Below are positions 15,777 to 36,259 of a DNA stretch of 64,000 nt, piece by piece; the first letter of the stretch is position 1, and each line of letters opens with the position of its first letter. Both the position numbers and the translations under genes were made by a program. A model generated the notes under the pieces. It ran no database searches. It saw only the letters and a list, made by a program, of their open reading frames with translations, and had not been told where the DNA came from. The stretch is from Proteromonas lacertae (Eukaryota): NCBI GenBank assembly GCA_002245135.1, contig NGBS01001199.1:1-64000 (forward strand). The letters run 5' to 3'.

Positions 15777-16202
15777 TTAGCCAAGGAGATACTTCAAGGT
15801 TCTTAATGCACCAGAGTAGAGGATAAGTGGCATGTAATGGCCCAGTGGGATGTATCCATAGTCTTCTTCCTTGCTATTGTTGTATCTGATAAGCTTACAG
15901 CCTTTCTTCATCCTGGTCATGATATGTCTTGGACCTTTAAGTAAAGTCGTAGGAAGCAGATTGAGCTTCATAAGGTGACAATGGAACTTGGCAGAAAGGT
16001 TCTTAAAGTATACACAGTCATCATCAGGAGTAGGATCGGTATACCTGCTCATCACTCCGAGATTCCTTATCTGTTGCTTCATGGAGATGAGGTACATCTT
16101 GATGAACTCATCGGAAAGATCCTGGTTGTCATCCTTCTGGTTAAGGATCACGTACTTAGCGTCTTCATTCAAGGTGATCTCCTCCGACATGTTTATAATC
16201 AA
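15777..16202 (-). CDS. Hypothetical protein (141 aa), GC-richer element family
   Basis: Identical protein at 51170-51595. Confidence 0.55.
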   Translation of the reverse strand: MIINMSEEITLNEDAKYVILNQKDDNQDLSDEFIKMYLISMKQQIRNLGVMSRYTDPTPDDDCVYFKNLSAKFHCHLMKLNLLPTTLLKGPRHIMTRMKKGCKLIRYNNSKEEDYGYIPLGHYMPLILYSGALRTLKYLLG

Positions 16203-16226
16203 GGTAAGTTATCACAGACACTAGCT

Positions 16227-16511
16227 TTATCGGGTAGTGTCAGCTGTGAAGTCTCTTACCATGTCTATGATCTCAGCATTGAAAGGATCATCATCATCGT
16301 CTTCATCCTTGGAGTTAGTGATTGTAAGTGAAGATTTATGAGGTTTAGGAGGGAAAGGAGGAGGAACATCATCATCAACAGCAGCAGCCATCTTAGCCTT
16401 CAACTTCTTATACTCCGACTTAAGCTTAATTCTGAACACCTTAGTGTCTTTCTCATCGCTAGAAGATTCCTCTAAGGCATTGATAGGTCTGGTTCTCTTC
16501 ATGGTATTCAC
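16227..16511 (-). CDS. Hypothetical protein (94 aa), GC-richer element family
   Basis: Near-identical copy at 51620-51904; starts just inside a subterminal repeat. Confidence 0.55.
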   Translation of the reverse strand: MNTMKRTRPINALEESSSDEKDTKVFRIKLKSEYKKLKAKMAAAVDDDVPPPFPPKPHKSSLTITNSKDEDDDDDPFNAEIIDMVRDFTADTTR

Positions 16512-16539
16512 AGATCAGAAAAGACTCAATGGAGATTTT

Positions 16540-16720
16540 AACAATTGTAAAGTCCCTGTTCCACGATTCTATTAAAAGCCCTTACAAGGTCACTAGCGTA
16601 GCAAGGAGACTCTAGATCGTGATTAGATTCATTGTCTTTAGATGGCCAACACTTGTAGATAGCTTCCAAGAGTCCCTGTAGGAGATAATCCTGTAAAAGA
16701 TCATTCCGTAGGTAATCGTC
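16540..16720 (+). repeat. Diverged subterminal repeat of the TIR family
   Basis: ATTAAAAGCCCTTACAAGGTCAC.AGCGTAGCAAGGAGA shared with 46390-46429, 51964-52003 and 61002-61041. Confidence 0.85.
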
Positions 16721-16947
16721 ATGATTTTCTTAGGACTAAGGTTCAATGTCAAAGATTTCTAACGAGCTGACTTACTAGAGCTTCATCTCGATAATCAATA
16801 GACATGTTACTAGAGGATAGGTAAATTCAAGGAGTTGCAATATGAGAAGGTATATATAGACGATTTATCTTTATCATTTGATTTATCTTCAATCCAATAT
16901 AGACTTTCTTTGAATAAATCTGTCAATATTCTTTTATATAATTCTTG

Positions 16948-17277
16948 TCACACCATGGCTTCAACATAGAAGGCTACTTGATCTTGCTTAAGGAAGTAGC
17001 ACTTACCACAGATACTGAGCTGGGCTTTCTCAGGTTGTAATTGTCGTTGTTGTTGGGCAGATCCGGGAAATGCAAAGGAATTGGAAGGAGCCGATGGAGA
17101 CATCATCATCACTGGCTGGGATATCACGGGTTGGTTCATCATTGGTAAGACTGAAGCTGGATTGAAAGAAGGAGCTGTCATAGGAGCAGTCATTGCTGGG
17201 TAAGGAATTTGTAGCATAGCTGGTTGATTGAAAGAGTTCATTGGAAACGATAAGTAGTGAAAGTTAAGATCGGCCAA
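16948..17277 (-). CDS. Hypothetical low-complexity P/M/Q/S-rich protein ending in CxxC
   Basis: ORF starts next to the conserved TTTACAATTGGTTTCCACGG motif. Confidence 0.45.
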   Translation of the reverse strand: MADLNFHYLSFPMNSFNQPAMLQIPYPAMTAPMTAPSFNPASVLPMMNQPVISQPVMMMSPSAPSNSFAFPGSAQQQRQLQPEKAQLSICGKCYFLKQDQVAFYVEAMV

Positions 17278-17528
17278 TAAATATATGACTGAAGTGAACC
17301 TAAGAAGGAACCTTCAAAGTAACCTTCAAGGAATCGTAGAACCATCCTAGTCTTTACAATTGGTTTCCACGGTTCTATATATGAACTTTTCTTGGAAGAG
17401 TTCAGCTCGTAGAATACTCTTTGAAGGGATTCACTTAGTAGATCATCCCATAGGGAAGAAGACGTTGTAGGAAGAAGACCCCTTAGGAGGAATCCCGTAT
17501 AAACCATACGTAAATGGGACTATGGCAC
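17261..17528 (+). repeat. Variant terminal repeat of the TIR family
   Basis: Ends TTAGGAGGAATCCCGTA..ACGTAAATGGGACTATGG, as at 46612-46652 and 61223-61265. Confidence 0.85.
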
Positions 17529-17731
17529 TTTGTGTTGTAGTATGCTGCCATCCCCATCTCCTTATATGTTGTCCAAGAAGGAGTCAATGACCAGATGGCC
17601 TATGTCTTCCAGATCGCTATCAGTACCGTAGGAGATTAGTATGAACACGTAGAGTTCAACTACAACATTACAATTCCTCAAGGAGACTACAACGGCTATA
17701 AGCTCCTTGCAATGTTCATAAGTCCCTTTTG
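17529..17731 (+). pseudogene. N-terminal fragment of a minor capsid (penton) protein
   Basis: Frame from 17541 reads YAAIPISLYVVQEGVND..*..YNITIPQGDYNG, matching the A.IP.S.Y..N..ITIP.G.Y penton signature of virophages, PLVs and NCLDV; two in-frame TAG stops. Confidence 0.6.
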
Positions 17732-17952
17732 AGAAACTGCATTTAGAGTAAGAAGCAAGTAGTACTGAAAGCAAACTCCTTATGTTCCATCCATCAACAG
17801 CCTTTGGTAAGAAGAAATGCACGTCCTCTGATCATTACTTTCATAATGCTTGATATCTAGTATAAGTATAATGAAATTAAGCAACATGTTTGAATGTAAT
17901 TGAAAAACACTGTACTGGTATAGAATGGTTATAGTTGTATTTTTAAGAAATT

Positions 17953-19459
17953 ATGAATATACTAAATGCAACTGTTTATCAATATGTAATACTTGTAATT
18001 CTTTGTTTATTTATTAATAATTCTATTCCTTATGTTAAAGTAATATCAAAAACTAATACTTTATGCTATAGCTGGATTCCTCATAACAATTATAAACAGC
18101 AGTTAAAATTATGTAATATTAATTGTTCTTATGTAAGGACAATACCATTTCCTTTAAACTCTCCATTTTTATGTGGTGTAAATGAGTATAATTATTCATC
18201 TAAATGGAAAAGAAATATTTCATATAATATTTATTTATTCAATACATCTACTTATGGAATAACGGTAAAAAACTATAGATATTTTTATGGAACTTCTTAT
18301 GTATATGTAAAATGATATGAATTAGTTTATTAGTAACATATCAAATTATGAGATCCAATACTTTGAATCTAAGTACATCAAAGAAATTAGACTAATATTT
18401 CATCCTAACTTTTATTATAATAAAAACATCAATAGAATATCAGTCGCATTATTTTTGTTCGATGGATTATCAAGAGCGTCATTCAATAGTCAATTTAAAA
18501 GTACACAAAGTTATTTATTAAAACTTGCAAAAGACTATTACATATATGATATGCTAAGATATCATACAATTGGGACAAATTCCAGACCTAATTATGTTCC
18601 TCTATTTTATGGTATAAAATATAACAAAAAGCCTGTTACAGTATGTATAAATATTATTAATTATAGAAAAAATCTATATTTAATTACTTTCATGACAATA
18701 ATTATATTACAATATCACAATCAGGATTTTGTGATCTTAATATTAATAATTATGGAATTCCTGAAAAATTTGGTGTAGATCATAATATAAATTTAGCATG
18801 TCATCCGTTTATTGATAAGTATTAATATTATATACTTGTAGTTATAATAAAACTGGAGCATATGGAACTGGACCAAGATGCATTCATGGTAAAAGAATCT
18901 CATACATGTTTATTAATTATTTAAAAGAAGCTCAAATATATTATGCTGATCATAAAATAACGACATTTTCATTTACTTCTTTTTCAGAAACTCATGATGT
19001 AATAAGATGTTAGTATTATTATATAGGCTAATCAAAAATCTGTGTCTGGAATTGATGAAAAGTTGAGTGAGTATTTTAGTTTTTTAAATAGTATGTATTA
19101 ATACAAATATGATATAGAATCTAATACATTACAAAATTATATTACTATAATTACAGGAGATCATGGCATTCATTATGGTAAATATTATAATATATTTGAG
19201 AATACATTTCCTCCTTTAATCATAGTATTATTTATAATATTAGATATAGATAATTAGTAAAAATATACTTAGTAAAATTCAACACAATAATATTAAAATG
19301 AATCAAAATCGATTAATCACACCATATAATCTATTTTATACTTTAAAATATATATCAAATGGAATTAAAGGAAACATAAAATACACTTTATTTGATAGAA
19401 TTGATATTAGTAATAACTGTATAAAATCAAAAATTGAAGTAAATTGCAATTGTATATAA
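17953..19459 (+). CDS. DUF229-like alkaline phosphatase/sulfatase-superfamily protein with several introns
   Basis: FDGLSR, YHTIGTNSRPN, RCIHGK, ETHD, ITGDHG, NQNRLITPYNLFYTL. GT-AG introns at 18641-18666, 18819-18841, 18999-19026 and 19091-19117 restore the frame; the 3' part may be damaged. Confidence 0.8.
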
Positions 19460-19482
19460 ATGGTTCATTTTATACTTAACAC

Positions 19483-20322
19483 TTGTGTTTCTTAATTTTA
19501 ATTTCGATTATATCACTTTTTATAATATTTATTTTTCATTATTACTCTATAGAAAATAAACCAAAAATATACAAATGTTCTAAAGACAAAATAATTGAAG
19601 TAGAAAATCCAATAAAATTTAACTTTTCTATTGCAAAGCATAATTATCTCTTTTATAAATTCATATTCTTTATAGAATCATGTGTATATCACAATTTAAT
19701 TAGAAGAAGTATAATAAATAAGTGGGGGAAATTGTGTTTAAACAGTAGATGCCTTTTTTATTTTGTAATTGCCACTAAAGGAAAATTAAATGATATTACA
19801 AACGAAAATATCAACAATATTATAGGTGTTGATATTATAGATAATTATTATAATTTAACAATACTAACATTCAATATTTATAAGTATTTTATTAAATATA
19901 ATCTACATTCAGATTATATTATAAAAAATGATGATGATATAACTCCTAACATTCCTCTTATTTTAATTTATTTAAATATATATATTAATAAAAATAAGAT
20001 AAGTGGATTCTACTATCCTGAAATGAAAGTTTCAAGAAATATTAATTCATCTGTGTTTTTGTCAATAACAATTTATCCATTTAAGGTATTTCCTAAATTT
20101 GTAGCAGGAGGATTTGTAATTACACCGTCAAGGATGATATTTAATATATACAAAGAACTACTTAAAGAAAATAGAATAATATATAGAGAAGATATGCATA
20201 TGGCAATTATTTATAAAAACTTAAATATATCTTTTCAAAAATTAAATAAATATTATCATAGAAAAGAAAAGATAATAACTAAAAAAATGGTAGTGAATGA
20301 TATATGTTATCATAGATCGTGA
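19483..20322 (+). CDS. GT31 beta-1,3-galactosyltransferase-like
   Basis: TM anchor; DNYYNLT, IIKNDDDI, FPKFVAGG, REDMHM. Confidence 0.85.
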   Translation: MCFLILISIISLFIIFIFHYYSIENKPKIYKCSKDKIIEVENPIKFNFSIAKHNYLFYKFIFFIESCVYHNLIRRSIINKWGKLCLNSRCLFYFVIATKGKLNDITNENINNIIGVDIIDNYYNLTILTFNIYKYFIKYNLHSDYIIKNDDDITPNIPLILIYLNIYINKNKISGFYYPEMKVSRNINSSVFLSITIYPFKVFPKFVAGGFVITPSRMIFNIYKELLKENRIIYREDMHMAIIYKNLNISFQKLNKYYHRKEKIITKKMVVNDICYHRS

Positions 20323-20331
20323 GTAGCAACA

Positions 20332-21366
20332 ATGAATGATATATATCACAATAATATTATTGATGTTATATATATTTTTTGTAGTGTATTAACTATCTTG
20401 ATAATGGCTATTTTTATATTAGTTGTATTATTATTATTATTTCTATTTTACACAATTTATAATTACAATATAATCAAATTGTTATTCTTTGTTGCATCAT
20501 ATGGATCTAATCAATTAAATTTGTTATATATGCAAATAAAATACTTTCAAATTATATGTGAAAGTGGATATATTATAAAAATAATCATACATCACACACA
20601 AATATACAAAAATTCTTCTTTTAATCATTTTTATTGTTTTAAACAAAACAGTTACATAAATATAATGTTTATAAAAGTATCTTCAATTGTTTTACATATG
20701 TTGGTTAAAGAACACAGAAGATATATAATCGAAAATATTAAGGAAATAAATAATTATCATCATGTAGGGTTTTTTGAAAATGATATTGGGTTTAATTTAG
20801 GTAACTTAAACTATTACTTTCATACCCTTTCCTTGTTCAATAAATTAAATCTAAAAAATACTATTCCTGGGTTTAAAAGATTTGAATTATCGAAATGTAG
20901 TAATGGTGATGTGTGGAAGAGTTGTCAAGATCATATTGATAATATTACTTTTTATAATATTAAAAATGAAATATTTGTGAGAATTAAACAAGGGTTTTGT
21001 GCAATGTGGATTTTACCTATATATTTATTAAAAAAATATATTAAAGAAAAAGAATTTTTAGAAATACCTGATAATCAGCATAATGGATACAATGGAATTA
21101 AACCATATTATTCCTATTATTATTGGGAAAAACACTATATACCATTAATTCCTTTAAAAAGAATTGATGATTGTTTTGTTCATCATATGAGTAATAAATA
21201 TATACATTATTATGCTTCAATTCAATTAACCGAGCTTTATGATCAAATGAATATATGTAGGAGTAAAGATGGTTTAAAATATGTGGGAGAGAGAAATTAT
21301 AGAATAATATATATAAACAGAAGTAAAATTAGTAAAAATTGTATTCAATTAAATAAATGTTTATAA
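20332..21366 (+). CDS. Putative GT-A-fold glycosyltransferase
   Basis: TM anchor, GFFENDI DxD-like motif, VHHMSNKY; cluster context. Confidence 0.55.
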   Translation: MNDIYHNNIIDVIYIFCSVLTILIMAIFILVVLLLLFLFYTIYNYNIIKLLFFVASYGSNQLNLLYMQIKYFQIICESGYIIKIIIHHTQIYKNSSFNHFYCFKQNSYINIMFIKVSSIVLHMLVKEHRRYIIENIKEINNYHHVGFFENDIGFNLGNLNYYFHTLSLFNKLNLKNTIPGFKRFELSKCSNGDVWKSCQDHIDNITFYNIKNEIFVRIKQGFCAMWILPIYLLKKYIKEKEFLEIPDNQHNGYNGIKPYYSYYYWEKHYIPLIPLKRIDDCFVHHMSNKYIHYYASIQLTELYDQMNICRSKDGLKYVGERNYRIIYINRSKISKNCIQLNKCL

Positions 21367-21379
21367 GATACATGAATGA

Positions 21380-22429
21380 ATGAATGAAATAAGCCGTAAA
21401 ATATTATTATTATATATATATTTACTTCTTCTTTTATATTTATCCAATAAATATTATGTAACTAAGGTAATAAATTTGTTATTTGTATTTCCAGTTAATG
21501 GAAATCGAGGACCATCATCTTTAGCTAAGTCTTATATATATACCATAAATTATTTTTTAAATAATACCAATATAAACAAATACTTTCGATTTACAATTAA
21601 GAGTAAAATATCATTGAAAGATTATAAAGCTTACACCAAAATAAAGAATAATTTGATTTGGTTTTTATATGGAGATTTCTTCAATCAGCTAGCTTCTAAT
21701 TCAAACTCATTCTCTTATAAAAATACATTATACGGTCCAACTGTTAGTCCAATAAAATGGTTCAAATTTCCAATGAACAACACATATGAAGTTAAATGGA
21801 GTGAATGTATTAACAAAATATTTGCATATGTTGTTCAATCAGATAGAGTTAAAAATCATTTAATAGCTAAATCAAAACATATAACAAATATAGAAAAGAA
21901 GTATATAGTATCTCATGGCTGTATTATATCAAATTCATCATTAAACATATTATCATGGGATAATAGATATATCGATGTGTTGATTTATGCCAAATTTGCT
22001 GATGATAAAAAAGAAAAAGAATTACATCAGTTAATTGTAATGTTACAACAGAATTATGTTATAAAATTAATAAGATATGGAAATCACACAAGAGAATCAT
22101 TGCTAAACTTAGCATTAAACAGTAAAATATCTATATACTTTTCATTTTATGATTGTTGGCCATCCTCATTGATGGAAATATTAAGCGCTGGAGCGTATCC
22201 TATAGTACAGCAATGTGAATTAATAGAATATATAGGAGATTGCATAAAGTATTTTGAAAGAAGTTTAAACAAAATTAAAGATGTTGTTGAAAACCTTATA
22301 CTAAACAAATATAACTCAAAAGATATATCTGACTACTATAATAACAAAAATAATTGTTTAAAAATATTTAAATCTACATTAATAGAAATATATTTTAGAA
22401 AAACTAATAAAATGATACATAATATCTAA
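21380..22429 (+). CDS. Putative GT-B-fold glycosyltransferase
   Basis: TM anchor, GNRGPSSL, VVQS, DCWPSSLMEILSAG. Confidence 0.6.
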   Translation: MNEISRKILLLYIYLLLLLYLSNKYYVTKVINLLFVFPVNGNRGPSSLAKSYIYTINYFLNNTNINKYFRFTIKSKISLKDYKAYTKIKNNLIWFLYGDFFNQLASNSNSFSYKNTLYGPTVSPIKWFKFPMNNTYEVKWSECINKIFAYVVQSDRVKNHLIAKSKHITNIEKKYIVSHGCIISNSSLNILSWDNRYIDVLIYAKFADDKKEKELHQLIVMLQQNYVIKLIRYGNHTRESLLNLALNSKISIYFSFYDCWPSSLMEILSAGAYPIVQQCELIEYIGDCIKYFERSLNKIKDVVENLILNKYNSKDISDYYNNKNNCLKIFKSTLIEIYFRKTNKMIHNI

Positions 22430-22462
22430 TATAATATTATTATTAAGCTTAAATTAATGAAT

Positions 22463-23788
22463 TTAACTACAAACCATTTTTGATATATTAGTATTACATC
22501 CTAAAATATTTCTATTAGCAGTAGTATAATTATTAACTATTTGAATTAAATTATCTACATTATAACAATAAGGAAAATATATAAGCCTCTCAGCCCATAT
22601 GCCAACGCCCTTTTCTGTTGCCCAATCTGTTTCTTTTAATAATTTGTCCATTTCAGTGGGATAAGATGATGAAATGTTTTTAAATATTTCCCCTTCTATA
22701 TTCAAATTGCTAATATGCAATTGTTTAAATTTATTCCATTTTTGTAATATTAATATAGCTTTATCAATTATTTTTTTGATTTCTATTAAATTCAAACCAT
22801 ATATCCTCTTGTTAGATGGGTAATACAATGATATAAAATGCATTGATCCTTCTTGCACATATTGTTCCATAAAAAATGGGCATTTCCAAAATAATCCCCC
22901 TAAATTAATAATTATCCCTGGATCTGATATAAATGCAAAATTTAAAAGTCCAGTACCAGGACCTGATATATATATACTAGTGCAACTTAATATTTTTAAT
23001 TGATATTTGAAATCGCGAATTTTTCTCCAATCAATATACTTTATGTTAAATTTATATTTGTATATGTTGATTATTTTAAATAATATATTCTTTTCTTCTC
23101 TTGTATATCTTTTGTTATGTACTATAATAGCATATCTGTTTTTGCATTTTGTTATGTTATAGACATAATACATTCTTTTTCTCATCCACCATGTTGCTTT
23201 GTATTTTTTACCGCCAGGAATTGAATATTCTTTATTTGTACATCTTTGACACTGATGAGCTAATCCCACAACTAAAGTTTCTATAAGATATGAATTATTG
23301 TATAAATTACTTTCATATATAATTCTATTCATAGAAAAAGTTTCAAATATCTTAGTCTTCCAATTATTTTTCCAATTACTATTAGATTTAGATAATATAA
23401 TATGAAACTGATTCATATAAAATCTAAACTTTAACAATGATAAATACATTGAATATAAATCATCCCATAGTAAGTGGCCTATATTATTTTCATTAAATAA
23501 ACCTAAATAAAATGAAATACCTTTTATAATTTTATTGCTATTAATTTGGTAGTATTTGGTTGTAGGTTTGAAACATTCATTACTTTTTCTGCTATTTACT
23601 GAAACGCATTTAATATTTCTTTTTAAATTAATAACTATCCATTCACCTTTAACATAATAAACATTTCTATATATACATGTTCTATTATATGATGTTCCAA
23701 CACATCTTACTGATGATATACATTCAATATCTCTATAATAATATAATACTATTAGTATATAAAATAGTAAAATAAGCAAATTATACAT
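22463..23788 (-). CDS. GT61 (DUF563)-like glycosyltransferase
   Basis: TM anchor, CIYRNV, NIGHLLWDDL, QLKILSCTSIYISGPGTGLLN. Confidence 0.8.
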   Translation of the reverse strand: MYNLLILLFYILIVLYYYRDIECISSVRCVGTSYNRTCIYRNVYYVKGEWIVINLKRNIKCVSVNSRKSNECFKPTTKYYQINSNKIIKGISFYLGLFNENNIGHLLWDDLYSMYLSLLKFRFYMNQFHIILSKSNSNWKNNWKTKIFETFSMNRIIYESNLYNNSYLIETLVVGLAHQCQRCTNKEYSIPGGKKYKATWWMRKRMYYVYNITKCKNRYAIIVHNKRYTREEKNILFKIINIYKYKFNIKYIDWRKIRDFKYQLKILSCTSIYISGPGTGLLNFAFISDPGIIINLGGLFWKCPFFMEQYVQEGSMHFISLYYPSNKRIYGLNLIEIKKIIDKAILILQKWNKFKQLHISNLNIEGEIFKNISSSYPTEMDKLLKETDWATEKGVGIWAERLIYFPYCYNVDNLIQIVNNYTTANRNILGCNTNISKMVCS

Positions 23789-23818
23789 TCTTCTACTTAA
23801 TCATTAATTAAAACAAAA

Positions 23819-24640
23819 ATGAATATTATTACCTTTAGTTTTTTTATTTTATTTCTACTTTTTTTTGTTGAAATATTATTTAAAAAATATGTTCATGAAA
23901 CTGAAACAAATAATTGTATATCTTTAATTATACCTTCAACTGAGAAAGACTTCTTATATTGTTATAAACAATTTTTTCATTATACTAATAGTTTTTATAC
24001 TGCCAAGGAAATTATATTATCTATTAGTTCTGTTACAAACACATCATATATAATACACATAATTAAAAATTTAACAATAAGAAATAAAATAATTATTGGT
24101 TTGCGAAAATCTAGACATAATGCTGCATCAAATAGAAATTATGGATTTCTATTAAGTAGGTGTGGAATAGTCTCATTTTTTGATATGGATGATCTAATGA
24201 CTGTGAATAGATTATCAATACTATACAAATTTTTCACATATGATAGAACTACCGAATTTGTATTACATAAATATTCTTCTGAATGCAAAGGATTACTGAA
24301 TAGAAAATACTCAGATAATTTATGGCAACTTAAGTATAACTTGTCTTATGAATATATACATCAAATGTATAGTATAACATATTTAAAAGAAAAATCTAAC
24401 GATATGTGGTGTTGCAAACATATAAATGAATTAAAAAATGAAAAAATTCATAATGGTTGGGCAACAATGAGAAGATATATTCTAAAAGAGATAAAGTATA
24501 ATGCAAGCTATGAATGTGGAGAAGATTCTGATTTTAATACAAAAGCAATACTAAATCATTATAATACTACTATACTAAATATTAGTTTAGGGTATTATGT
24601 GAAGGATAATAAATGCAAAAATATTAATTATTGTATATAA
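23819..24640 (+). CDS. GT2 glycosyltransferase
   Basis: TM anchor, SLIIPS, NAASNRNYG, SFFDMDD, GEDSDF. Confidence 0.85.
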   Translation: MNIITFSFFILFLLFFVEILFKKYVHETETNNCISLIIPSTEKDFLYCYKQFFHYTNSFYTAKEIILSISSVTNTSYIIHIIKNLTIRNKIIIGLRKSRHNAASNRNYGFLLSRCGIVSFFDMDDLMTVNRLSILYKFFTYDRTTEFVLHKYSSECKGLLNRKYSDNLWQLKYNLSYEYIHQMYSITYLKEKSNDMWCCKHINELKNEKIHNGWATMRRYILKEIKYNASYECGEDSDFNTKAILNHYNTTILNISLGYYVKDNKCKNINYCI

Positions 24641-24675
24641 TTATTAAATTTGTATTATTTTAACTAAGAATAATT

Positions 24676-25728
24676 ATGCTTTATAGATTTAGCAATTTAT
24701 TACTAATATTATTAGGTATATATATTCTACTTTTATTATTATATTCATATATTAACATAGTATTATTAATTGACAATGCAAATGATTTATTTTTCTCAAA
24801 AGAAATGAAGATTTTTATACATGATACATCTATATATAATAATTTCTTAAAATGTCAAAACTTAACAGATTTATATATTATACGAAAGAAATGTATATAT
24901 AGAAAAAGAGGATATAGCGGTCATCCTAAGAAACACACTTTTTCATATCCTTTAGATAATAGAATTCAACTAATGCCATATAATATTATTTTTTATGTTG
25001 AATTATTGATCTTCATACATTGTAGACCAGATGAATTTTATGAAAGATTTCTGTTTAGAAAATATACGCATTATTTAAGTAACATATACATAATATTTCT
25101 AACATCTAAAAGTTTAAAGAAAGAAATTAATAAGAGAATAAAGCAAGAATCTTTACTTAATAATGATATTCTGCAATTTAATGAATTTTCATCCTATTTT
25201 AATTTAAGTATTCAAACTGTTCATATGTTAATTTGGTCTCAACATATAAAATTCAAATATCTATTGAAATCAGATATTGATGTATATATTAATATTCCTT
25301 TATTATTGAAAATAATAAGGAGTTTTAGAAGTAATGATGTTAATTTTGCAGCAGGACGTTTATCATATACATCTGTTTTAAGAAATAAAAAGTATAGCCA
25401 CTATGTTCCTATAAATGTAATAAAAGAAAAAATGTTTCCACCATATTTACAAGGAATGGGATATGTTATTCCCTATAATACTGTGAAATTAATGGTTAAA
25501 ACTATAAAATATGTAGAACCAAAAATTTGGATTGAAGATGTATTTCTAGGTTATTTATTTAGATATAATAACATTTCTTTAATAAATCTATCTAATTATA
25601 TATTAAGAGATATTCCTTTTAATTTGTGTATAGTAATGCATAATATAAACAGATATATATTCATTCATGGATTATATCCTATTGAAATATATATTATGAA
25701 AGGTATGAACATGACTATTGTTGATTAG
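24676..25728 (+). CDS. GT31 beta-1,3-galactosyltransferase-like
   Basis: SYFNLS, LLKSDIDVYIN, FPPYLQGMGY, WIEDVFLG. Confidence 0.9.
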   Translation: MLYRFSNLLLILLGIYILLLLLYSYINIVLLIDNANDLFFSKEMKIFIHDTSIYNNFLKCQNLTDLYIIRKKCIYRKRGYSGHPKKHTFSYPLDNRIQLMPYNIIFYVELLIFIHCRPDEFYERFLFRKYTHYLSNIYIIFLTSKSLKKEINKRIKQESLLNNDILQFNEFSSYFNLSIQTVHMLIWSQHIKFKYLLKSDIDVYINIPLLLKIIRSFRSNDVNFAAGRLSYTSVLRNKKYSHYVPINVIKEKMFPPYLQGMGYVIPYNTVKLMVKTIKYVEPKIWIEDVFLGYLFRYNNISLINLSNYILRDIPFNLCIVMHNINRYIFIHGLYPIEIYIMKGMNMTIVD

Positions 25729-25784
25729 ATATATATTTATTTAACAATATATGCATATTCAATGTAACTTTATGTTAGGAAAGA

Positions 25785-26841
25785 ATGTTTTCTATTATTA
25801 TATTAACATTATTACTTTTATATTTATACAATATTCATCTATCTAAGAATGTTAAGAAAGGGATTATATTTGGAATTGCATCAAATGATGGTCTAGGTAA
25901 TAGAATTGCAGGAATTCCTGGAACATTTCTATTATCTTTACTTTCTAATAGACATTTTCATAGTATTACTATAATATTAATAAATAGTTATTGGAAATAG
26001 TTTGGATAAATATTTTGATCTAAAAATTTTTGACAATTTAAATATTAAACAAACATTACAAATAAATATATCATTAACATTTTCATTTTATAGATATTGT
26101 ATTGATCAAACGGAGATGATTAATAGAATTATCAATTCACATATATATTCAATATCTATTAGAAGCATTCATGATTTAGTACCGACAATAATTAAAACAA
26201 GAAAATATTATTCAATATTACGCAAATTAAATTTTATTAAATGTTCAAAAATGAACAATATTTTAAATCAAATTCTTGAAGTGAATTATGTTCTATACAA
26301 TAGATATTTCTATTTTCATAAAAAACATGAAAATATTGGTCATAATATAATTAGAAACTATAATAATATTTTTAAAATAGGAATTCATGCCAGGCAGTTG
26401 GATGAATGTTTAGAATCGTGTATAGTAAATTATAAAGATGTTAGTTTAATAAAAAATATAACAACAAATATTTGCAATAATAAATGTTATATAATTTTAA
26501 GTTCAAATAGCAGGAATTTTACAGATTATTTTAAAAGAATAAATAATAATAATATATATATATATAAATCAAATATTGATGTTAAACATTCCTTTTTTTC
26601 AGAAAGAATAGAAAATGAAGATATTGAAAAAATAATGGTTGACATATATTTAATTAGCAGGTGTGATATATTAATATTGAGTGGAGGATCAACATTTTCT
26701 CTATTAATATTAAACATTGGATATTATAAAAACTATAATATATGTCAAAAAAAGCATTACTATTTTTGGAATAATTATGAAAAATATGATCATTTAGAAA
26801 AAGCAAGAATAAAATCTAATTGCATAAATATAAATATATAA
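25785..26841 (+). CDS. Fucosyltransferase-like (GT11/GT23/GT37 clan), one intron
   Basis: DGLGNR, IGIHAR, DIYLISRCDILILSGGSTFS; a GT-AG intron at 25963-25987 joins the two ORFs in frame. Confidence 0.8.
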
Positions 26842-26891
26842 ATATAAAGAGATATTTTAAAAAGAATATTTATATTGACTTTATAATTTAT

Positions 26892-28170
26892 ATGTTACTT
26901 TTTAAATTCTATATATTGTTTATATTTTTATTAGTTACTATATCATTTTTACATAATGTAGATAATGACACAATGATGATAGTGCCTGCCGATTTATATT
27001 ACTTTAATACAGTCAGAAATTTTTATGAATTGGTAGTTAAATATTTCGGAATAAAAAAATTTAGAGTAGTTGCTACATCAACTAAAATGTATTATAAATG
27101 CAAAGATTATAATATTCCTGTTGATATATCTCCTAAATTAATTGAAGAGGGAAAAGAAGGAAATAAAATCCATACTATAGGATTTGCTAAAAAGATGAGA
27201 TTAAAACATATAATATTTTTAAAATATTTAAAAATTACCAAATATTTAATTGCAATAGATGCAGATATATTTTTCTTTAAACATCCATATTCTTTGTTAG
27301 ATTATTTTAATTCATCAGTTGATATAGTCTTAGCTTGTGATAGTTCTTCGTGCAAAGTTTTGAACTATGGTTTAGTGTATATTTTATTAATATATTTTAA
27401 ATAATATTAGAGTTTTTAAAAATAGTAAATTCACTATTCATTACTTGAATGATTTAATTGAGATTGAAAAAAAATGTAAATCATATGAATGGAAATATTC
27501 AGAACAAAGTTTAGCAAATTTATATATGCAAAAAATAAATTATAGTCGTATAATATATTTAACTATAAATAAATTTATGGATGGATATAACCTTTTTAAT
27601 AGAATTGGATTTTTGTATAACAGGTCTTCCAACTATCTTAATTTAATAGGATTTCATAATGATTATACATTTGGAATTGTTTCAAAAACATATAGAATGA
27701 AAGAACTAGGAATGTATGTTATTGATGATGATGCATATTATTCATCGAAATTGAATAAATATGTGTATTTTAACAATAACATATTTTACACAAGTTCAAA
27801 AAATGTTACACTCATTTTATCTACTATCTTATTCATTAGCAATCTGTTAAATAGAATATTAATATTACCTCGTTTACCATGCAATAACAATAATCGCACA
27901 TGCACATTCGTTAGAATGTATAATTTGGAGTATTTCGAAAAAAAGTGTGGAAAGAATTATAGAGAAAATTCATTTTTGTATTCTAGCAAAATTCCTTCTT
28001 CTATACTTAGCAAATGTGTTATAACATCAATAAAAACAGAAAAAGATTTCAAAAATCTAAAACGAATTGATAATCAGCTAATTATAATAAATGATTTAGG
28101 ATTTTATAATTCATATTATATGTATTGCTTTAGAGACGATAATTATTGGCAAAGAAAATTTGAACTATAA
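26892..28170 (+). CDS. Nucleotide-diphospho-sugar transferase (GT77-like), one intron
   Basis: TM anchor, IAIDADIFF, LNYG, EQ, FHNDY, RENSFL; a GT-AG intron at 27377-27410 gives GLVVFKNSK. Confidence 0.8.
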
Positions 28171-28187
28171 CATTTAATATAAATCTA

Positions 28188-29195
28188 TTATTTTATTAAC
28201 ACTTTATTAATACTTATTAGTAAAATTTCTGCTGGCCTTAAACCATGAATGAAAGCCTTATTTCTAAGAAAATATAGATTTGTCTTTTCTATATATGACA
28301 TATCAGTGTATTTAGATATATCTAAATATTTTAAGTTACAAAATTTCATTATTTTACCAAATAAAGCATCTTCAATCCATATGAAGGATTTAATAATTCT
28401 AATGTAATTGTTAATACAACTTAATACAGTTGTTCTAAATAGAAATCCAGGACCATATGGATAAGGAGGATAAGGAATATAAGATCTTGACTTATCTTCA
28501 CAATAAATAGACCATTTCGCATGAGGAGAACATGGCAATTTGGGATATTGATGAATTGATCCAACAACAGATATATTTTTATTACAATTATTTATTATGT
28601 CAAATATCAAAGTTATATTAAAATATGTATCTATATCTAATTTTAAAATCCATTTAATATTTTTACAATTATTATACATATATTGGTAGAAGCAAATCAT
28701 AATTAATGAACAATTATAATATGTTGATTCAATGCTAAATAATATAATGTCATTATAAATATTTATTTCATTGTAAATTGAATTTTTCAAATTTTCTTTA
28801 TTTGAAAAACCTGTAATGAAAGAATATTTAATATTTTTCATCATTTTTAACACTCTTCTCATTATCATTCTTTCATACAATAATTCTGGACGACTAAGAA
28901 TGCCAATAAATATTATTGCATTTGAACAATCTATTTTGTTAAATTTATTACATAATATAGTCATAGACTGTGATATATATGAATTGTGTGAAGAAGTAGT
29001 TATTAATGGAAAATGATAATATGTTTTATTCCTACCGCATTTAAGATCATATATTAATCTCATACAATCTGAATATATTTTATATTCATAATCAATTCTT
29101 TTATTAATTTCATCAAATAATTTGTTTCTGTTATATATAATATCATGATATACAAATAATATAATAAATAAGTAAAAAGTAAATATTAACTTCAC
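28188..29195 (-). CDS. GT31 beta-1,3-galactosyltransferase-like
   Basis: STYYNCS, WILKLDIDTYFN, YPPYPYGPG, WIEDALFG. Confidence 0.9.
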   Translation of the reverse strand: MKLIFTFYLFIILFVYHDIIYNRNKLFDEINKRIDYEYKIYSDCMRLIYDLKCGRNKTYYHFPLITTSSHNSYISQSMTILCNKFNKIDCSNAIIFIGILSRPELLYERMIMRRVLKMMKNIKYSFITGFSNKENLKNSIYNEINIYNDIILFSIESTYYNCSLIMICFYQYMYNNCKNIKWILKLDIDTYFNITLIFDIINNCNKNISVVGSIHQYPKLPCSPHAKWSIYCEDKSRSYIPYPPYPYGPGFLFRTTVLSCINNYIRIIKSFIWIEDALFGKIMKFCNLKYLDISKYTDMSYIEKTNLYFLRNKAFIHGLRPAEILLISINKVLIK

Positions 29196-29426
29196 AGTCT
29201 CTTTTCTTCTAGATGAATTTAATTGGTATATTAAAGATGTTAATGTTTTAAAACTATCATTATACTTTGCCTATCATACTCGCCTAATAGAATGAACAGG
29301 TCACATTTCCATCACCTTCTATTTTAAAAATAAATCCATATATTATAAGTATCTATGCATGATGTCTATAAGAATCAAAATAAAATACATTTCTAATGTG
29401 ATTTAGTTTTAAGTACTTAATGATAA

Positions 29427-31229
29427 ATGTATTTTAATTATATTGAATTTTTAAGAGGATTATCATGTTTATTGATTGTGTTTTATCATATTAATCCACA
29501 AATAATTCCAAATGGATTTTTGGGAGTAGATCAGTTCTTTATAATATCTGGATATCTAATTACTTTTTCAAATCAACATAGCAGATATTATACTTCATTG
29601 AACTTTTTACATAAGCGTGTGAAGAGAATAATTCCATTAAAAGGTGTAATATTATTTTTTGTTAATTTTATGAATAAAATTTATCTAAAAGAATCTATTA
29701 TTAATTTAGAATATGATACTATTAATGCGCTTTTATTTATTTTAAATGTTAAACTTATTCATGATAATAACAATTATTTTTCCTCATTAAGTGTAAATTT
29801 AATTCTTAATTTTTGGTCATTATCAGTTGAGGAGCAATACTATATATTTATTTCCATTATATCTTATGTAACTATCAAATTTTCTTTTAACGCTTCAATT
29901 ATATATCATCTATCTTTAATTATTTTATCTTTCGAATTCTTTAGGTATTACTATCATAGTTATTTTGTTATGTCATTTTATAGTTTTTTTTCGAGATTTT
30001 GGGAATTTAGTTGTGGCTCATTAATTAATTTTAATTCATATAAAACTTCAAATCAAATACTTATTTGTCTAGTTGTTTTTATCCAATTATCATTAATGTT
30101 TTCTGATTTAAAAGGTATTTTCTGTTTTATTATGATTAATTTTGTAAGTATTTATAACATAATTTATTCTAGGAACAATAAAAATAGTATTATATCTTGT
30201 GGAATAATCAATTATATTGGTAGAATATCATATTCAGTTTATCTTTCACACTATTCTATTGTTATAATATTTAGTAAAGGAAATGCTCTGATAATCACTG
30301 TATTTATTAGTATTATTTCCTATTATTTCATTGAACAAATATTTAGAAAATATGTTTCAGGGTGTGTTATATTGTTTATCTATTCTATATTTATATTCTG
30401 GAATTATAAATTGTATATTAGAGATTATAGAATGTCAATAATAAAATCTATAAATAAGAACTTCATAAAAGATATGTGTTCATATGATATTGTTGATAAT
30501 TTAATAGTATCAGCATGGAAAATATTATTATTAGGTGATTCACATGTTATTCATTATATAAGAGCATTTTATAATAATAAAATTGACATAATCTTATATC
30601 ATTCATATTATAATGATGTAGATTTATATAATAGTAATTACCATGAGATTAATTATTTGTTCAAATATCACTTTGATATAATAATCATGGGATTCTGGGA
30701 ACAGTTGAACAGAAGAAATGCATCTTACAAATATAAAATATATTTGTTAATTTTATACATAAAAAATTTAACAAATAATATTTTAGTTATATCAGATAAC
30801 CCCATGGTAAGTATTAATCCAAATAATTGTTTATTATCAAAGAAATGTAGTTATGCCATTATAAACATAAATTGTACATATATTCTTCCTCAAAAATTGT
30901 CAACTTATCAATACCCTCAAAATATGAAAGTATATGATTACAATACTAATAAATATACATTAAAAGGAAATAAATGTCTTTTAGATTTTAATGAAATTCC
31001 GATATATAGAGATGAGCATCACTATAGTGGATTATTCGTTGAAAAAATATTGATGAGTGATATTCATTCTGTATTAAATACAATATTACATAAGAATTTT
31101 TATAAGAAAAATTCAATTGTAGATTTAAAATTTCACTGTTTAGAAAAAGATCATAATATATATGGAGGAATATGTCAAGCAAATAGATATAAAATTTCTA
31201 AAATACATATAAATAATTATAAGAAATAG
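29427..31229 (+). CDS. Acyltransferase-3 plus SGNH fusion (OafA/OatA-like O-acetyltransferase)
   Basis: LRGL..VFYH, GFLGVDQFFIISGYLI, FWSLSVEEQYY, LLGDSH, YRDEHH. Confidence 0.9.
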   Translation: MYFNYIEFLRGLSCLLIVFYHINPQIIPNGFLGVDQFFIISGYLITFSNQHSRYYTSLNFLHKRVKRIIPLKGVILFFVNFMNKIYLKESIINLEYDTINALLFILNVKLIHDNNNYFSSLSVNLILNFWSLSVEEQYYIFISIISYVTIKFSFNASIIYHLSLIILSFEFFRYYYHSYFVMSFYSFFSRFWEFSCGSLINFNSYKTSNQILICLVVFIQLSLMFSDLKGIFCFIMINFVSIYNIIYSRNNKNSIISCGIINYIGRISYSVYLSHYSIVIIFSKGNALIITVFISIISYYFIEQIFRKYVSGCVILFIYSIFIFWNYKLYIRDYRMSIIKSINKNFIKDMCSYDIVDNLIVSAWKILLLGDSHVIHYIRAFYNNKIDIILYHSYYNDVDLYNSNYHEINYLFKYHFDIIIMGFWEQLNRRNASYKYKIYLLILYIKNLTNNILVISDNPMVSINPNNCLLSKKCSYAIININCTYILPQKLSTYQYPQNMKVYDYNTNKYTLKGNKCLLDFNEIPIYRDEHHYSGLFVEKILMSDIHSVLNTILHKNFYKKNSIVDLKFHCLEKDHNIYGGICQANRYKISKIHINNYKK

Positions 31230-31262
31230 CTATTGCATGGAGGTAGTTTCTGTAAAAATATA

Positions 31263-33074
31263 CTAAAAAGCATAGAATGTAGGATATTCAGCAAAACCAA
31301 ATTGATTGTATTTTGCTTCTTTTATTGTGCTTAAATTGTATTTTATATAATATAAATAATTAGATTTTGTATATGTTGATAAAATAAAACTTTTACATAT
31401 AATAGTTTTATTTTTTGCCTTTTGTAGATATATTCCAAGCACTTTATTTAGTGTATTATAAATAAAATCTGATTTACATATAAACAACTTGCTTAAGTGA
31501 TGCATATCACTATATATTTCTCTGTTATAAATATTATCTATGCAACTTGAATTTCCTTTACAATAAATGTTAAAATAGTCGATATATTTTATCTTTTTAT
31601 GTATAATTATAGGTAGCAAATGCTGTTTACATATTTTATCATTTAGTCTAATTCTATGAGGATTATCTTGAATTATAATTATTCCTTTAGCTATTGACAG
31701 TATGGTTTTTATTAAAATAGTAAAACAATTTTCAAATCTACTTTTATTTGTATGGAGAAACAAATAATCCACATATAAAGATATAATAGATATAGATATT
31801 CTTTTCATATCTAGAATAAAACTTGTTAAAGGTATACAATTCTTTTCTATGTTAATTATCCATGAATGAATGAATAGAACAATATCAACATCATAATTTC
31901 TAAGTGAAGTAATTAATACTGATAAGTATTGCATAAGATGTGAATCGCCTATTAGCGTTACAGTCTTTTTGTTAATTTCATTTTTAAAATTTTGGCATTT
32001 TATACCATACAAACAATAATTATTGTTAGTATTTAGAATAGTTTTTTGTATATCATTATTAACTATAATTGATTTTCTTAAACGCAAAAGAAATATAACT
32101 AACATCAATAAGCATATTGTACATATTACTTCATTATTTTTGATATTCCTAATAGGTAGTTCAATAAACTTGACAATATTGAATGATATACAGAATAACT
32201 TAATTAAAATGATATTAATTGATGGGTTGTTTTGAATAATCGGATAATGAAATAAATACAAAACATAAGACATATTTCCTATCACATTTAGCAATACACT
32301 ATCATATATATAATTATTTCTTTGAAGCAATAGAGCAATAGTTAGTGAAGTAGGTAAAAATGCAATGAATCCTGGAAATTGTATTGATGAATATAAACCA
32401 ATGAAATAAGATGATAATATAAGGCAGAACACAATAAAGATAGGATTCATATTAATATTTCTGCTACAATTTATAACAGCACATCCTTGTAGCAATTCCC
32501 AAGCTCTATTTTGTAGTAGATAATAAGAGGAGGAATTATTACTTATACTGAAAATAATACAACTAATATAACTACAAGCAACTATTATTAAGTATATGAA
32601 AATGTTGTGCTTAATTCTATAAAAAAATATTGGGTAAATGAAATAGAATTGTTCTTCTAATGATAAAGACCAATAGTTTAAAATAATAGACTTATTTTTG
32701 CTTTGAAAATAGCTCTTTGTAATTTTATTAAATCTAATATTTGACATACATAGTAACGCTGATATTATATCATAATACAATTGATTTTCATCACTAATTG
32801 ATTTATTTATTGTTGGATGATAATTATAGTAACATATAAGGCATATAATACTAGATGGAAATAGTCTTTTTATTCTTCTTGTATAAAACAAAACTATGTT
32901 GTAATAATTGTTATCATCACTGCATGAAGACTTTGTAATGATATATCCAGATATAACAAAAAAAATATCTACTCCTATAAATCCACCAGGTGCAAAATTT
33001 GTATTTAAATGATAAGCAAATACTAATAAAAATGCAATAGATCTTAATTCTTGAACATCATATCTATATTCCAT
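31263..33074 (-). CDS. Acyltransferase-3 plus SGNH fusion (OafA/OatA-like O-acetyltransferase)
   Basis: YRYDVQELR, GGFIGVDIFFVISGYII, YWSLSLEEQFY, LIGDSH, YSDMHHL. Confidence 0.9.
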   Translation of the reverse strand: MEYRYDVQELRSIAFLLVFAYHLNTNFAPGGFIGVDIFFVISGYIITKSSCSDDNNYYNIVLFYTRRIKRLFPSSIICLICYYNYHPTINKSISDENQLYYDIISALLCMSNIRFNKITKSYFQSKNKSIILNYWSLSLEEQFYFIYPIFFYRIKHNIFIYLIIVACSYISCIIFSISNNSSSYYLLQNRAWELLQGCAVINCSRNINMNPIFIVFCLILSSYFIGLYSSIQFPGFIAFLPTSLTIALLLQRNNYIYDSVLLNVIGNMSYVLYLFHYPIIQNNPSINIILIKLFCISFNIVKFIELPIRNIKNNEVICTICLLMLVIFLLRLRKSIIVNNDIQKTILNTNNNYCLYGIKCQNFKNEINKKTVTLIGDSHLMQYLSVLITSLRNYDVDIVLFIHSWIINIEKNCIPLTSFILDMKRISISIISLYVDYLFLHTNKSRFENCFTILIKTILSIAKGIIIIQDNPHRIRLNDKICKQHLLPIIIHKKIKYIDYFNIYCKGNSSCIDNIYNREIYSDMHHLSKLFICKSDFIYNTLNKVLGIYLQKAKNKTIICKSFILSTYTKSNYLYYIKYNLSTIKEAKYNQFGFAEYPTFYAF

Positions 33075-34643
33075 GGTTGGATTTATCTATGATAACAAAT
33101 TAGAATGTTTGATATTTGCTATATTTTCTATTTTATTACCTATGATAAATGTCTTGTATATCTAGTATAAGCAGTTGAAAAATCATGTAACCATAAAGCT
33201 TCAATCATAGATGGTATTATTATGTATTTTGAGCATGTTGTTATAATCACTGATGCTATACAGCTCAAAATACTTTATGGTATTATACTTGTATTAAATG
33301 CTTTTAGTAGATTAATGTAATCTTTATATGTTTCTTTTCTTCCATACTAATTATGATAGATAATTTCAATTCATCTTTGGTATAGCTTATTCATCAATAT
33401 CAACATTTATAATATAATCTGAATTGTATTCTAATATTAAAATAAGACTCTACTATACCTAATTTTTGAAATTGTTTAAGTTAGTTTTTGATTGTTATAC
33501 TAGCATCAAAAATATTTAGTTATTCCATCATTATTATTTTTTAAAGATGTTAAACACTAAGTTTATTTTTTTATTGGATATTGCCATATTTCAATATGAA
33601 TAATATTATTCATTCATTTATCATACACAATAATTTCATTATTCATTTCATTCATATTTTCATTTCTTATCATAGCGAATTGTAAGATATTAACTCTCAC
33701 ATAACTATTGTATATCCCTATAATTGAATTTTATAGAATAAATGTATTATACTTGTATAGTTAGTCAATTATAAATGTATTTTATAGATTCATATATTTA
33801 TTAATTTGTTACTATGAATGTAAAAGGAATATTTGATCATACATTTTCTATAAATTCATTTTTGTATTTGTTATAAAATATTTTTATGATATGGAGAATG
33901 TTTAGTCTTCCTCCGCATAAATTCATAATTTAGAATTTATATTCCTAATTCCTTAAGTAAATACAAATTATTATACATTAAAGAAATTATATTCATCAGG
34001 TATGTTGTGCGTCATTTGTCAGAGTTGGCCGTTTGCCTACCAGACACTTTCAAAACAAACTAAATACATATTCTTACTTGTCTTGATGAAAAATTGTTAC
34101 TTTTATTTTAACATTTTGTATATGATAGACATGTCACGATATGACTTAATTAGTCTATGTAACAAATTTATTTACATAATCTATTAATACATTTTAAGTA
34201 CATGAATAATATAATATATTATCATACAACTCACTTCTGTTGTTGATATAATTAAAAAAATGTAACTAAAAACTTGAATTTTCTTCCCTTATTTGTACGA
34301 AAATTAATATTTTGATATAAACACTTGTTTTATGTGCACATGTTTTTCATCTAAATCTATAATTTTAGTTACAAAGTTAATATCTACAATATAAACAGAA
34401 ATACAATCTTTAATCGACATGATTCTCAAAGCTACAACAAATTAATGTATTTCATATTTCAATGCCTTCTATAAAAATCATTCATTTCAGTGTGTAGCCA
34501 ATTACAATAGATTTTTAACACTTAGCTTCTTTTGTATAAATTACAAAGTTATAATTTATGTGTTGTTTTTTGTTTTATATAATAGTATCAATGATTATGA
34601 AATGATACACATAAGTCACAGAAGAAAATTGAGAAGTGAAAAA

Positions 34644-34907: not shown

Positions 34908-36259
34908 TTATTTAAATCTATAAATGTTTCTTTTGTTGTAAATGTAAAATAAATTAGCTTTTTCTTCGTTATTTAAACTTTCAATACCTTCAATTAAATC
35001 ATCAATGAAGTATTTTATATTAAAACTTTCTATATTTTGAATCTTTGTTATTTCCAAATTATTCAATCTTGCTCCAAGAAAGAATAAACAGTAATATCCA
35101 CAAGTTACAACATCTGTTTGATGAACTTTTGTATCTACTATTTCATATGATTCTAATTCACGATTGCAAGAATGAAAGAGTTGTTTAATATTCTTTATTA
35201 CTATATTTCTTGGTTCTTTGCTCATATAAATTGCTAAACTGTCATATATTCTAAACATCATATAATCATTAGGAACATAATCTACTTCCCATAAACTCCA
35301 ATGACTTTGATTTGGATCACATACTGGAAAATAATAAATTCCTTTTTCACTTATCTTTTTTTTATTATCCTTTTGCTTTTCATTTAAAAATACAACACCA
35401 GGATCAATAACATTCTTATTGTTGTTGGAAATATAATGTAATAAAAACAGGAATTCATCACCTTTTAGTTGATTGTTAATATTTAAATGACTCACCAATT
35501 CTTTGCAATTTGCTTCATATTTCGGTTGTTGATGTTGTCCATAGAATCTTACATGACCAATATCATTATATCCTTTAATTTTCTTTACAAACAACAAACT
35601 ATCATGAGTGTGATCATCATATGTAATTGATGCAACACTAGTATCTTTTCTATTTACCATTTTACATGCATATTTTAAAGTCATTGAATTACGCTCTATC
35701 AAAAGGTGTATATAGGTTTTGAATAGATCAATCATGAGAATAATATCAACATCGCTTATATATGGATGATCTTCAGACATCTTTATCATTAGCATTACAG
35801 CAGCCAATATTTCTGTTGCTTCAGGAAAGTTAGTATTAACATTAGTCTTGACAATCTTATATTGAGATATTATTTCACCTACACTTCTATCATATCTACC
35901 AATACGACGAATACCTTCTGCATAATCATCTTCACCAAATGAATCTATAACTTCGATTGTTTTATTATCATGATGAACGATAACAATGTAATAATTGTAC
36001 TATCTTTAGCTCTAATTATGAATGCTTCCATCTCTTTATTCATTATCATTTGTTTATCTTTACATACGTAATAATGTTGATTTAAATTGTATAATTCCAA
36101 TATGAAATGAATTTCATTTAATCCAAGTTGAATTTTTCCAATACTTTTTATAAATCTTTCAACAAATTCCAACTGATCATTAGTTAATGGATCCTTAATA
36201 TCTTCTTCAGAAGTTCTAATACCAAATATATCATACACTGCATTCTTCTTTGGATTCAT
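34908..36259 (-). CDS. Ulp1-like (C48) cysteine protease region, probably the C-terminal part of the transposase gene; frameshifted
   Basis: Catalytic H/D/C motifs SHWSLW, IYDSL and HQTDVVTCGYYC in ORF 34908-35807. Confidence 0.8.

Follow-up and report, generated by a model that had tools for sequence, protein, structure and literature searches.

A compact block of predicted glycan-enzyme genes within a rearranged, repeat-bounded segment of Proteromonas lacertae DNA

INTRODUCTION

In eukaryotic genomes, the glycosyltransferases (GTs) of the Golgi apparatus are usually scattered. In Leishmania, the SCG/SCA arrays link Golgi enzymes, of one or two families only, that diversify a surface glycan, namely, the side chains of lipophosphoglycan; the glycosylation clusters of giant viruses are dense, AT-rich runs that encode sugar synthesis and lack spliceosomal introns; and the fungal galactosaminogalactan (GAG) cluster is a self-contained synthase system that is conserved across genera. 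Little is known of the coat chemistry of the opalinatan gut protists, the group of Blastocystis. In this study, we analyze a block of 12 genes, the island, in a 64,000-nt stretch of DNA from Proteromonas lacertae (GenBank assembly GCA_002245135.1, contig NGBS01001199.1, positions 1 to 64,000 of the forward strand); the whole stretch is called the window.

Two eukaryotic systems are closest to the island. The GAG cluster comprises five genes (PMC8224951, PMC7229062), and the small outlier chromosomes (SOCs) of the Mamiellales carry 14 to 17 sugar-metabolism genes among 72 to 80, without synteny; in Ostreococcus tauri, SOC expression switches with virus resistance (PMC3491373, PMC5082852). A first-pass annotation of the window had held that such clustering is typical of bacteria and giant viruses and not of Golgi-type enzymes, a generalization that these eukaryotic precedents contradict (PMC3491373, PMC5082852, PMC8224951). 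A literature search, which did not extend to the P. lacertae genome paper or to part of the PMC12129017 supplements, found no paper on an island of this kind in Proteromonas or Blastocystis.

RESULTS

Twelve consecutive genes, given in order and with their strands in Table 1, occupy 97% of positions 17,953 to 33,074, and the GC content falls from about 40% to about 21% on entering this interval. The spacers measure 20, 9, 13, 33, 30, 35, 56, 50, 17, 156, and 33 bp (two of them taken from stop-to-stop frames), and 10 of the 11 are between 9 and 56 bp long. Nine families are represented; five reach the Pfam gathering score and cover 8 of the 12 genes (three GT31 genes, GT2, GT77, DUF229, and two AT3-SGNH genes). 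The first-pass annotation had described 12 consecutive genes, glycan related or plausibly so, from at least eight families and with short spacers, and this description holds. Its term "operon," however, conveys density only: three of the genes lie on the minus strand, and there are five strand switches. The mixed strands and the 30-bp spacer between the head-to-head GT61-like and GT2 genes suggest separate short transcripts driven from shared regulatory DNA, not an operon.

The P. lacertae genome (27% GC, 23,189 genes) includes 20 DUF229, 59 GT31, 48 GT92, 29 GT61, 19 GT77, and 6 AT3 models (PMC12129017, Table S5). When the density of glycan genes is taken as 206 of 23,189 (0.9%; the models of ten glycan families among all P. 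lacertae genes), the expected number of runs with 8 such genes in 12 is 4e-10; it is 4e-4 at a density of 5% and 0.08 at 10%. The clustering is beyond chance and, as had been supposed at first pass, remarkable against the genome-wide density of glycan genes. With its nine families, the island has the at least three adjacent nonhomologous enzyme genes, beyond chance, by which biosynthetic clusters are recognized. The island frames span 273 to 603 aa, whereas no stop-free frame exceeded 125 aa when the island was resampled 100 times. A ciliate-type genetic code was considered and rejected, since 600-codon frames are open under the standard code.

Enzyme assignments are shown by family match for 8 of the 12 genes, and the other four are likely to encode sugar-adding or sugar-modifying enzymes. 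All three GT31 proteins have a Galactosyl_T domain, DxD-type and ED catalytic motifs, and a type II anchor, and both AT3-SGNH proteins have an AT3 membrane domain fused to an SGNH domain with GDS and DxxH. In the DUF229 gene, the later exons give weak PF02995 matches that are colinear with the match on exon 2; the protein presumably belongs to the alkaline-phosphatase superfamily, and a literature search found no paper on DUF229 function. The GT4-like gene, which had no informative Pfam match, and the GT61-like gene were placed by language-model features. The fucosyltransferase-like protein was placed by its DGLGNR, HxR, and D-x-S motifs, which we take to be those of the fucosyltransferase family; a PDB search with its exon returned chance matches only. 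The remaining gene, which has no family, encodes a 344-aa protein that we presume, by resemblance, to be GT-A-like; it gave no informative match in Pfam, NCBIfam, or PHROG. Single-sequence AlphaFold models of this protein and of the fucosyltransferase-like exon (pLDDT 41.7 and 31.1, respectively) were unusable. Every catalytic motif checked in the island is kept, the meanings of the motifs being those generally attached to these families. Pfam and family scans of the 12 genes found no nucleotide-sugar synthesis, transporter, polymerase, flippase, or ABC export family, so the earlier picture of a self-contained, capsule-like locus fails.

Eight introns of 23 to 34 nt, all of the form GTA..TAG, interrupt three genes: six, of 23 to 28 nt each, in the DUF229 gene and one each in the fucosyltransferase-like and GT77 genes. 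The six-intron DUF229 model encodes 450 aa, whereas the same splice search, run on 60 Markov controls and on the opposite strand, reached no more than 106 and 40 aa, respectively; the island GT77 gene and its paralogue at position 7,135 (25% identical) have an intron at the identical motif and phase. An N-terminal hydrophobic segment above the threshold was found in 8 of the 10 non-AT3 island proteins; the other two have shorter hydrophobic stretches. These short introns and N-terminal anchors, both already noted at first pass, point to eukaryotic secretory-pathway genes, and by these features the island genes are eukaryotic and predicted to be Golgi-type. Tiny introns and short spacers are the style of P. 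lacertae (in the 22 gene models that open its annotation, introns are mostly 24 to 46 nt, and 10 of 21 spacers are 54 to 131 bp); the spacing of the island is tighter still.

The extreme AT content reported for the island is real, at a GC content of 0.216 compared with 0.25 to 0.29 for the hydin sequence and a coiled-coil gene in the same window, but it is not specific to the island. GC at third codon positions (GC3) is 0.12 to 0.19 in the island, 0.07 to 0.14 in hydin, and 0.165 in the coiled-coil gene, compared with 0.39 to 0.50 in the GC-rich flanks. Because island GC3 resembles that of hydin and the coiled-coil gene, low GC finds no support as a foreign signal; the foreign-looking DNA is that of the 40%-GC flanks, which are the GC3 outliers. 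Capture of a glycosylation island from a giant virus or bacterium, which the high density and AT richness might suggest, is highly improbable and for the whole block largely refuted, given the eight spliceosomal-type introns, the signal anchors, the eukaryote-type GT31, GT77, and DUF229 genes, and the host-like GC3; family scans found neither viral hallmark genes nor bacterial marker genes inside the island. For the GT4-like and GT61-like genes, the nearest ESM Atlas clusters do include viral and bacterial ones, and among the best 120 of 3,857 matches, the named AT3-SGNH proteins beyond the close relatives are bacterial; single old transfers are plausible. Searches that reach close relatives only retrieved no GT31 locus from JGI metagenomes, IMG/VR, or GTDB, neither the GT4-like gene nor the protein-primed DNA polymerase (pPolB) from IMG/VR, and neither of two island genes from phages.

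GT31b had 12 matches from 1,537 candidates, all in Logan assemblies, of which 11 were relatives at 51 to 55% identity; the 12 GT31b sequences are 48 to 70% identical to each other. AT3-SGNH a had five relatives at 48 to 50% and three at 34 to 36%, followed by matches mostly at 20 to 33% (best 120 of 3,857). In a midpoint-rooted FastTree phylogeny of 120 sequences (the three window GT31 proteins and 117 of 161 others kept by length), all three window proteins fell in one clade of 37 sequences (support, 0.998); the 20 members checked of the 34 from outside the window were all Logan-only. Both AT3 proteins grouped with six AT-rich relatives (support, 0.948; 114 sequences).

Clean ATG-to-stop models were obtained for 10 of the 12 genes. 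In GT31a, the main frame (19480 to 20322) is not the one opened by the ATG at 19460, and in GT31c an in-frame ATG ahead of the anchor requires an atypical 51-nt intron; these 5' defects may be assembly indels, pseudogenization, or unusual starts. Both (19460 to 19480 and 29254 to 29277) sit in the first codons of GT31 genes, beside short homopolymer runs, and could also reflect slippage-type switching; the other island coding DNA has no defects. In total, the 14,644 bp of the island contain 2 defects (GT31c being counted as one, from its start analysis), whereas hydin, even with introns freely allowed, needs 13 or more in 4,514 bp; about 42 would be expected in the island at the hydin rate. 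The first-pass impression of intact frames amid decayed DNA is borne out by these figures, from which it follows that the island is either under selection or younger at its site.

A passive origin, in which recent, unexpressed duplicates of dispensable families collect in DNA rich in transposable elements (TEs) with no joint function, seems very unlikely to us. The setting is indeed TE rich and CpG depleted, the two 5' defects are accompanied by a possible decayed 13th gene (for which a Pfam read-through with X gave no GT match), and hydin, an unrelated host gene, seems likewise to have been amplified. Such accumulation, however, would not select glycan enzymes alone, from nine families, with 9- to 56-bp spacers and no repeat inserted in 15 kb, and all of the catalytic motifs checked are kept. 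Moreover, the paralogues are old: identities within the window are 24 to 31% for GT31, 29% for AT3, and 25% for GT77, and paralogues this divergent do not form a young tandem array.

A new observation is that the island sits inside a 30.1-kb segment that is bounded by a 27-nt direct repeat and holds a decayed hydin copy with its halves swapped: the C-terminal continuation (40,953 to about 38,830) lies upstream of the N-terminal half (13,203 to 10,814). The two repeat copies differ by one mismatch and are the only two in the window at five mismatches or fewer. This permuted segment may have been left behind when a circle was opened within hydin; alternatively, it may be a single unit excised from a tandem array. 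The embedding of the island in mobile DNA, as first proposed, is supported by flanks that contain repeats, an integrase, and a transposase and by the rearrangement of the 30-kb segment; beside the integrase is a protease frame that has no Pfam match and that we take, from its motifs, to be Ulp1-like. No transposase, terminal repeats, or target-site duplication was found at the island ends (17.9 and 33.1 kb). An assembly artifact joining unrelated pieces might be suspected from the repeat-rich window, from the 1,950 bp at 14771 to 16720 that are 99.4% identical to 50164 to 52113, and from the swapped hydin halves; it is nevertheless scarcely credible, since the 12 genes lie in unbroken unique sequence and are separated by very short spacers, the two copies of the 27-nt repeat are one base apart, and misjoins could touch the flanks but not the clustering.

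The P. lacertae models also include 140 hydin, 172 pPolB, 79 Ulp1, 54 integrase, 32 Tc1, and 11 class II ribonucleotide reductase genes (PMC12129017, Table S5). The families seen in the window (hydin fragments, a Polinton-type polymerase, an integrase, Ulp1, DUF229, and AT3) agree with this profile; an origin in Blastocystis was considered and rejected on the hydin, AT3, and DUF229 counts. The 140 hydin models carry the label "transposon" (PMC12129017), and hydin, a flagellar gene, seems to have been amplified as cargo.

Several other features of the window were observed. Positions 1 to 4385 hold a broken Polinton/Maverick-type pPolB gene with an endonuclease VII-like domain, and a possible second pPolB-like fragment was seen by eye at 10.2 to 10.8 kb (plus strand) but was not recovered by tblastn. 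The second small island (7135 to 9204) consists of two convergent genes with island-like composition and intron style, flanked by repeats resembling miniature inverted-repeat transposable elements (MITEs). A broken class II (B12) ribonucleoside-triphosphate reductase gene (46598 to 48176), with 18 IMG/VR relatives at 52 to 65% identity, lies in a 40%-GC segment, and a Tc1/IS630-type transposase gene (52346 to 54058) is split by a 650-bp palindromic insert (53107 to 53753) that is related to the MITE-like copies beside the island. The GC-rich segments at 40936 to 53050 and 54200 to 61450 contain many open reading frames without a family, including one for an 824-aa coiled-coil protein, and are possibly a new family of large mobile or viral elements; short repeats are common to 16538 to 16686, 46341 to 46716, 54227 to 54418, and 60953 to 61453. 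An intact 690-aa coiled-coil gene without a family match (61817 to 63889) has a CpG value above that of the rest of the window.

Table 1. Positions of the island genes, in order, and of other features of the window
Feature	Position	Strand	Evidence or remarks
1. DUF229 type II membrane protein, 450 aa	17953..19459	+	Pfam PF02995, 29.4 bits on exon 2
DUF229 introns (six)	18301-18325, 18641-18666, 18819-18841, 18999-19026, 19091-19117, 19225-19249	+	Splice model and controls
2. GT31a beta-glycosyltransferase	19460..20322	+	PF01762, E 3e-13; catalytic motifs retained
3. 344-aa anchored protein, ExD motif	20332..21366	+	No known family; anchor found
4. GT4-like (GT-B) glycosyltransferase, 349 aa	21380..22429	+	ESM Atlas, 0.97 to PF00534/PF13692 clusters
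5. GT61-like glycosyltransferase, 441 aa	22463..23788	-	ESM Atlas, PF04577 in 30/30 matches, top 0.97; motifs
6. GT2 glycosyltransferase, 273 aa	23819..24640	+	PF00535, 26.6 bits; DxD motif
7. GT31b beta-glycosyltransferase, 350 aa	24676..25728	+	PF01762, E 2e-22; PDB B3GALT5/B3GNT2, E 1e-18
8. Fucosyltransferase-like GT-B protein, 343 aa, one 25-nt intron (25963-25987)	25785..26841	+	Splice model; XG_FTase, E 0.24 (weak)
9. GT77 nucleotide-diphospho-sugar transferase, 414 aa, one 34-nt intron (27377-27410)	26892..28170	+	PF03407, 26.3 bits
10. GT31c beta-glycosyltransferase	28188..29270	-	PF01762, E 6e-19; relative P0181 at 49%
11. AT3-SGNH fused O-acyltransferase a, 600 aa, intronless	29427..31229	+	PF01757 and PF19040
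12. AT3-SGNH fused O-acyltransferase b, 603 aa, intronless	31263..33074	-	PF01757 and PF19040; 29% identical to a
Possible decayed 13th gene, GT92-like fragments	33100..33560	-	Motif resemblance by eye only
Second small island: GT77-like gene (+) with 29-nt intron (7800-7828), Methyltransf_24 gene (-)	7135..9204		
27-nt direct repeat, left copy	10814..10840		At end of hydin N-terminal half
27-nt direct repeat, right copy	40927..40953		At start of hydin C-terminal half
Hydin pseudogene, N-terminal half	10814..13203	-	PF22544; PDB hydin, E 2e-40; tblastn; at least 7 disruptions
Hydin pseudogene continuation, C-terminal half	38830..40953	-	At least 6 disruptions
rve integrase and adjacent protease frame	34908..38074	-	PF00665, E 2e-13 (integrase)
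GC-rich (40%) repeat, left flank of island	14771..17840		
MITE-like repeat, right flank of island	33973..34304		Copies at 9866-10167 and 53083-53753

DISCUSSION

We think it probable, though well short of certain, that the island is a native protist cluster that serves as a decoration kit for surface glycans, with enzymes that likely act in the Golgi lumen. The roles proposed for these enzymes derive from family knowledge: side chains on a surface glycoconjugate would be lengthened by the GT31, GT2, GT77, GT61-like, GT4-like, and fucosyltransferase-like enzymes and O-acetylated by the AT3-SGNH enzymes, and the attachment of a phospho- or sulfo-linked group would fall to the DUF229 protein. For nucleotide sugars and transporters, the kit would depend on other loci in the genome; P. 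lacertae has eight nucleotide-sugar transporter models. It is likely that the genes were gathered from long-diverged, lineage-expanded families, that the block is held together under purifying selection with its genes separately transcribed, and that it was moved or copied within the 30-kb segment via a circular or permuted intermediate.

Several observations weigh against the interpretation of the island as a native, selected kit. Four of the 12 family assignments are weak, one of these being without any match, and two GT31 genes carry 5' defects. Since decay of the hydin copy may have preceded the arrival of the island beside it, the contrast in defects alone is no proof of selection. The AT-rich composition shared by their members may inflate the GT31 and AT3 clades. 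CpG depletion in the island (0.37) equals that of the neighboring mobile DNA (0.24 to 0.41), compared with 0.76 for the coiled-coil gene (only 20 CpG), and so fits a silenced compartment; P. lacertae has one C5 methyltransferase model, which hints that this compartment is methylated. Finally, among the 99 annotated GTs of Blastocystis ST1, no stretch of 12 locus numbers contains more than 3 (P = 0.63, locus numbers being assumed to follow position); clustering is therefore not general to the likely relatives.

A rather unlikely alternative is that the island is a serotype-like variable cassette, one of perhaps 10 to 20 interchangeable islands that differ in shuffled content, spread by segmental transposition, and are switched on or off, thus varying the coat against viruses, predators, or host immunity. 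The DUF229, GT31, and GT92 families of P. lacertae (20, 59, and 48 models) would be enough for many islands, the window contains a second small one, the identities among the 12 GT31b sequences would suit such a set, the segment is permuted and CpG depleted, and a precedent linked to virus resistance exists in the Mamiellales (PMC5082852). On the other side, the Logan relatives may be plain orthologues of different species, and the island itself carries no mobility genes. A wider proposal, which we consider decidedly unlikely, is that compact Golgi glycan cassettes of mixed families form a library, being copied and moved as 30-kb circles (of which permuted hydin copies are the relics) and epigenetically switched so as to vary the coat. 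If this were true, such a library would be a eukaryotic counterpart of bacterial serotype loci.

As a native decoration kit, the 12 near-contiguous glycan enzymes would represent a candidate coat-glycan pathway, one suited to joint expression and assay, and the concept drawn from the Mamiellales outlier chromosomes would come to include an anaerobic gut lineage. In addition, the permuted hydin copy suggests a route of amplification both for such blocks and for the 140 hydin models of P. lacertae.

Bacterial capsule and O-antigen loci combine dense, diverse GT genes with OafA-type AT3-SGNH O-acetyltransferases, as does the island. Unlike these loci, the island has introns and signal anchors, and it lacks operon polarity, wzx/wzy/wzm/wzt, and nucleotide-sugar genes. 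The GT repertoire ascribed to the coat of Blastocystis, the likely sister lineage, shares the GT2, GT4, GT31, GT61, and GT77 palette of the island (PMC5608401, PMC12129017); there, however, the ST1 GTs are dispersed by locus number, and in Table S5, AT3, like hydin, is absent from all eight Blastocystis genomes and DUF229 is nearly so, with a single model in one of them (PMC12129017).

The likeness to the SOCs of Bathycoccus (chromosome 19) and O. tauri (chromosome 19) lies in the concentration of unrelated GTs and methyltransferases, the few introns, the species-specific genes, the transposon neighbors, and the proposed surface-glycan role (PMC3491373, PMC5082852); the methyltransferase counterpart in our window is the Methyltransf_24 gene of the second small island. 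An SOC is a whole chromosome of 146 to 215 kb with 18 to 24% sugar-metabolism genes, a GC content below that of its own genome, epimerases, transporters, and a demonstrated connection with virus resistance, whereas the P. lacertae island is a 15-kb block, set in a TE mosaic, that is made up almost entirely of glycan enzymes; its GC3 resembles that of the host, and AT3-SGNH and DUF229 genes are present but supply genes are not. The GAG cluster is likewise a eukaryotic cluster of unrelated genes, devoted to one surface polysaccharide and its modification (PMC8224951, PMC7229062), whereas the island comprises 12 anchored transferases, with no synthase or export gene found. In conclusion, the comparison indicates that the island would function like the SOC blocks and the GAG cluster, yet it appears to be a member of neither, nor of the bacterial capsule loci.

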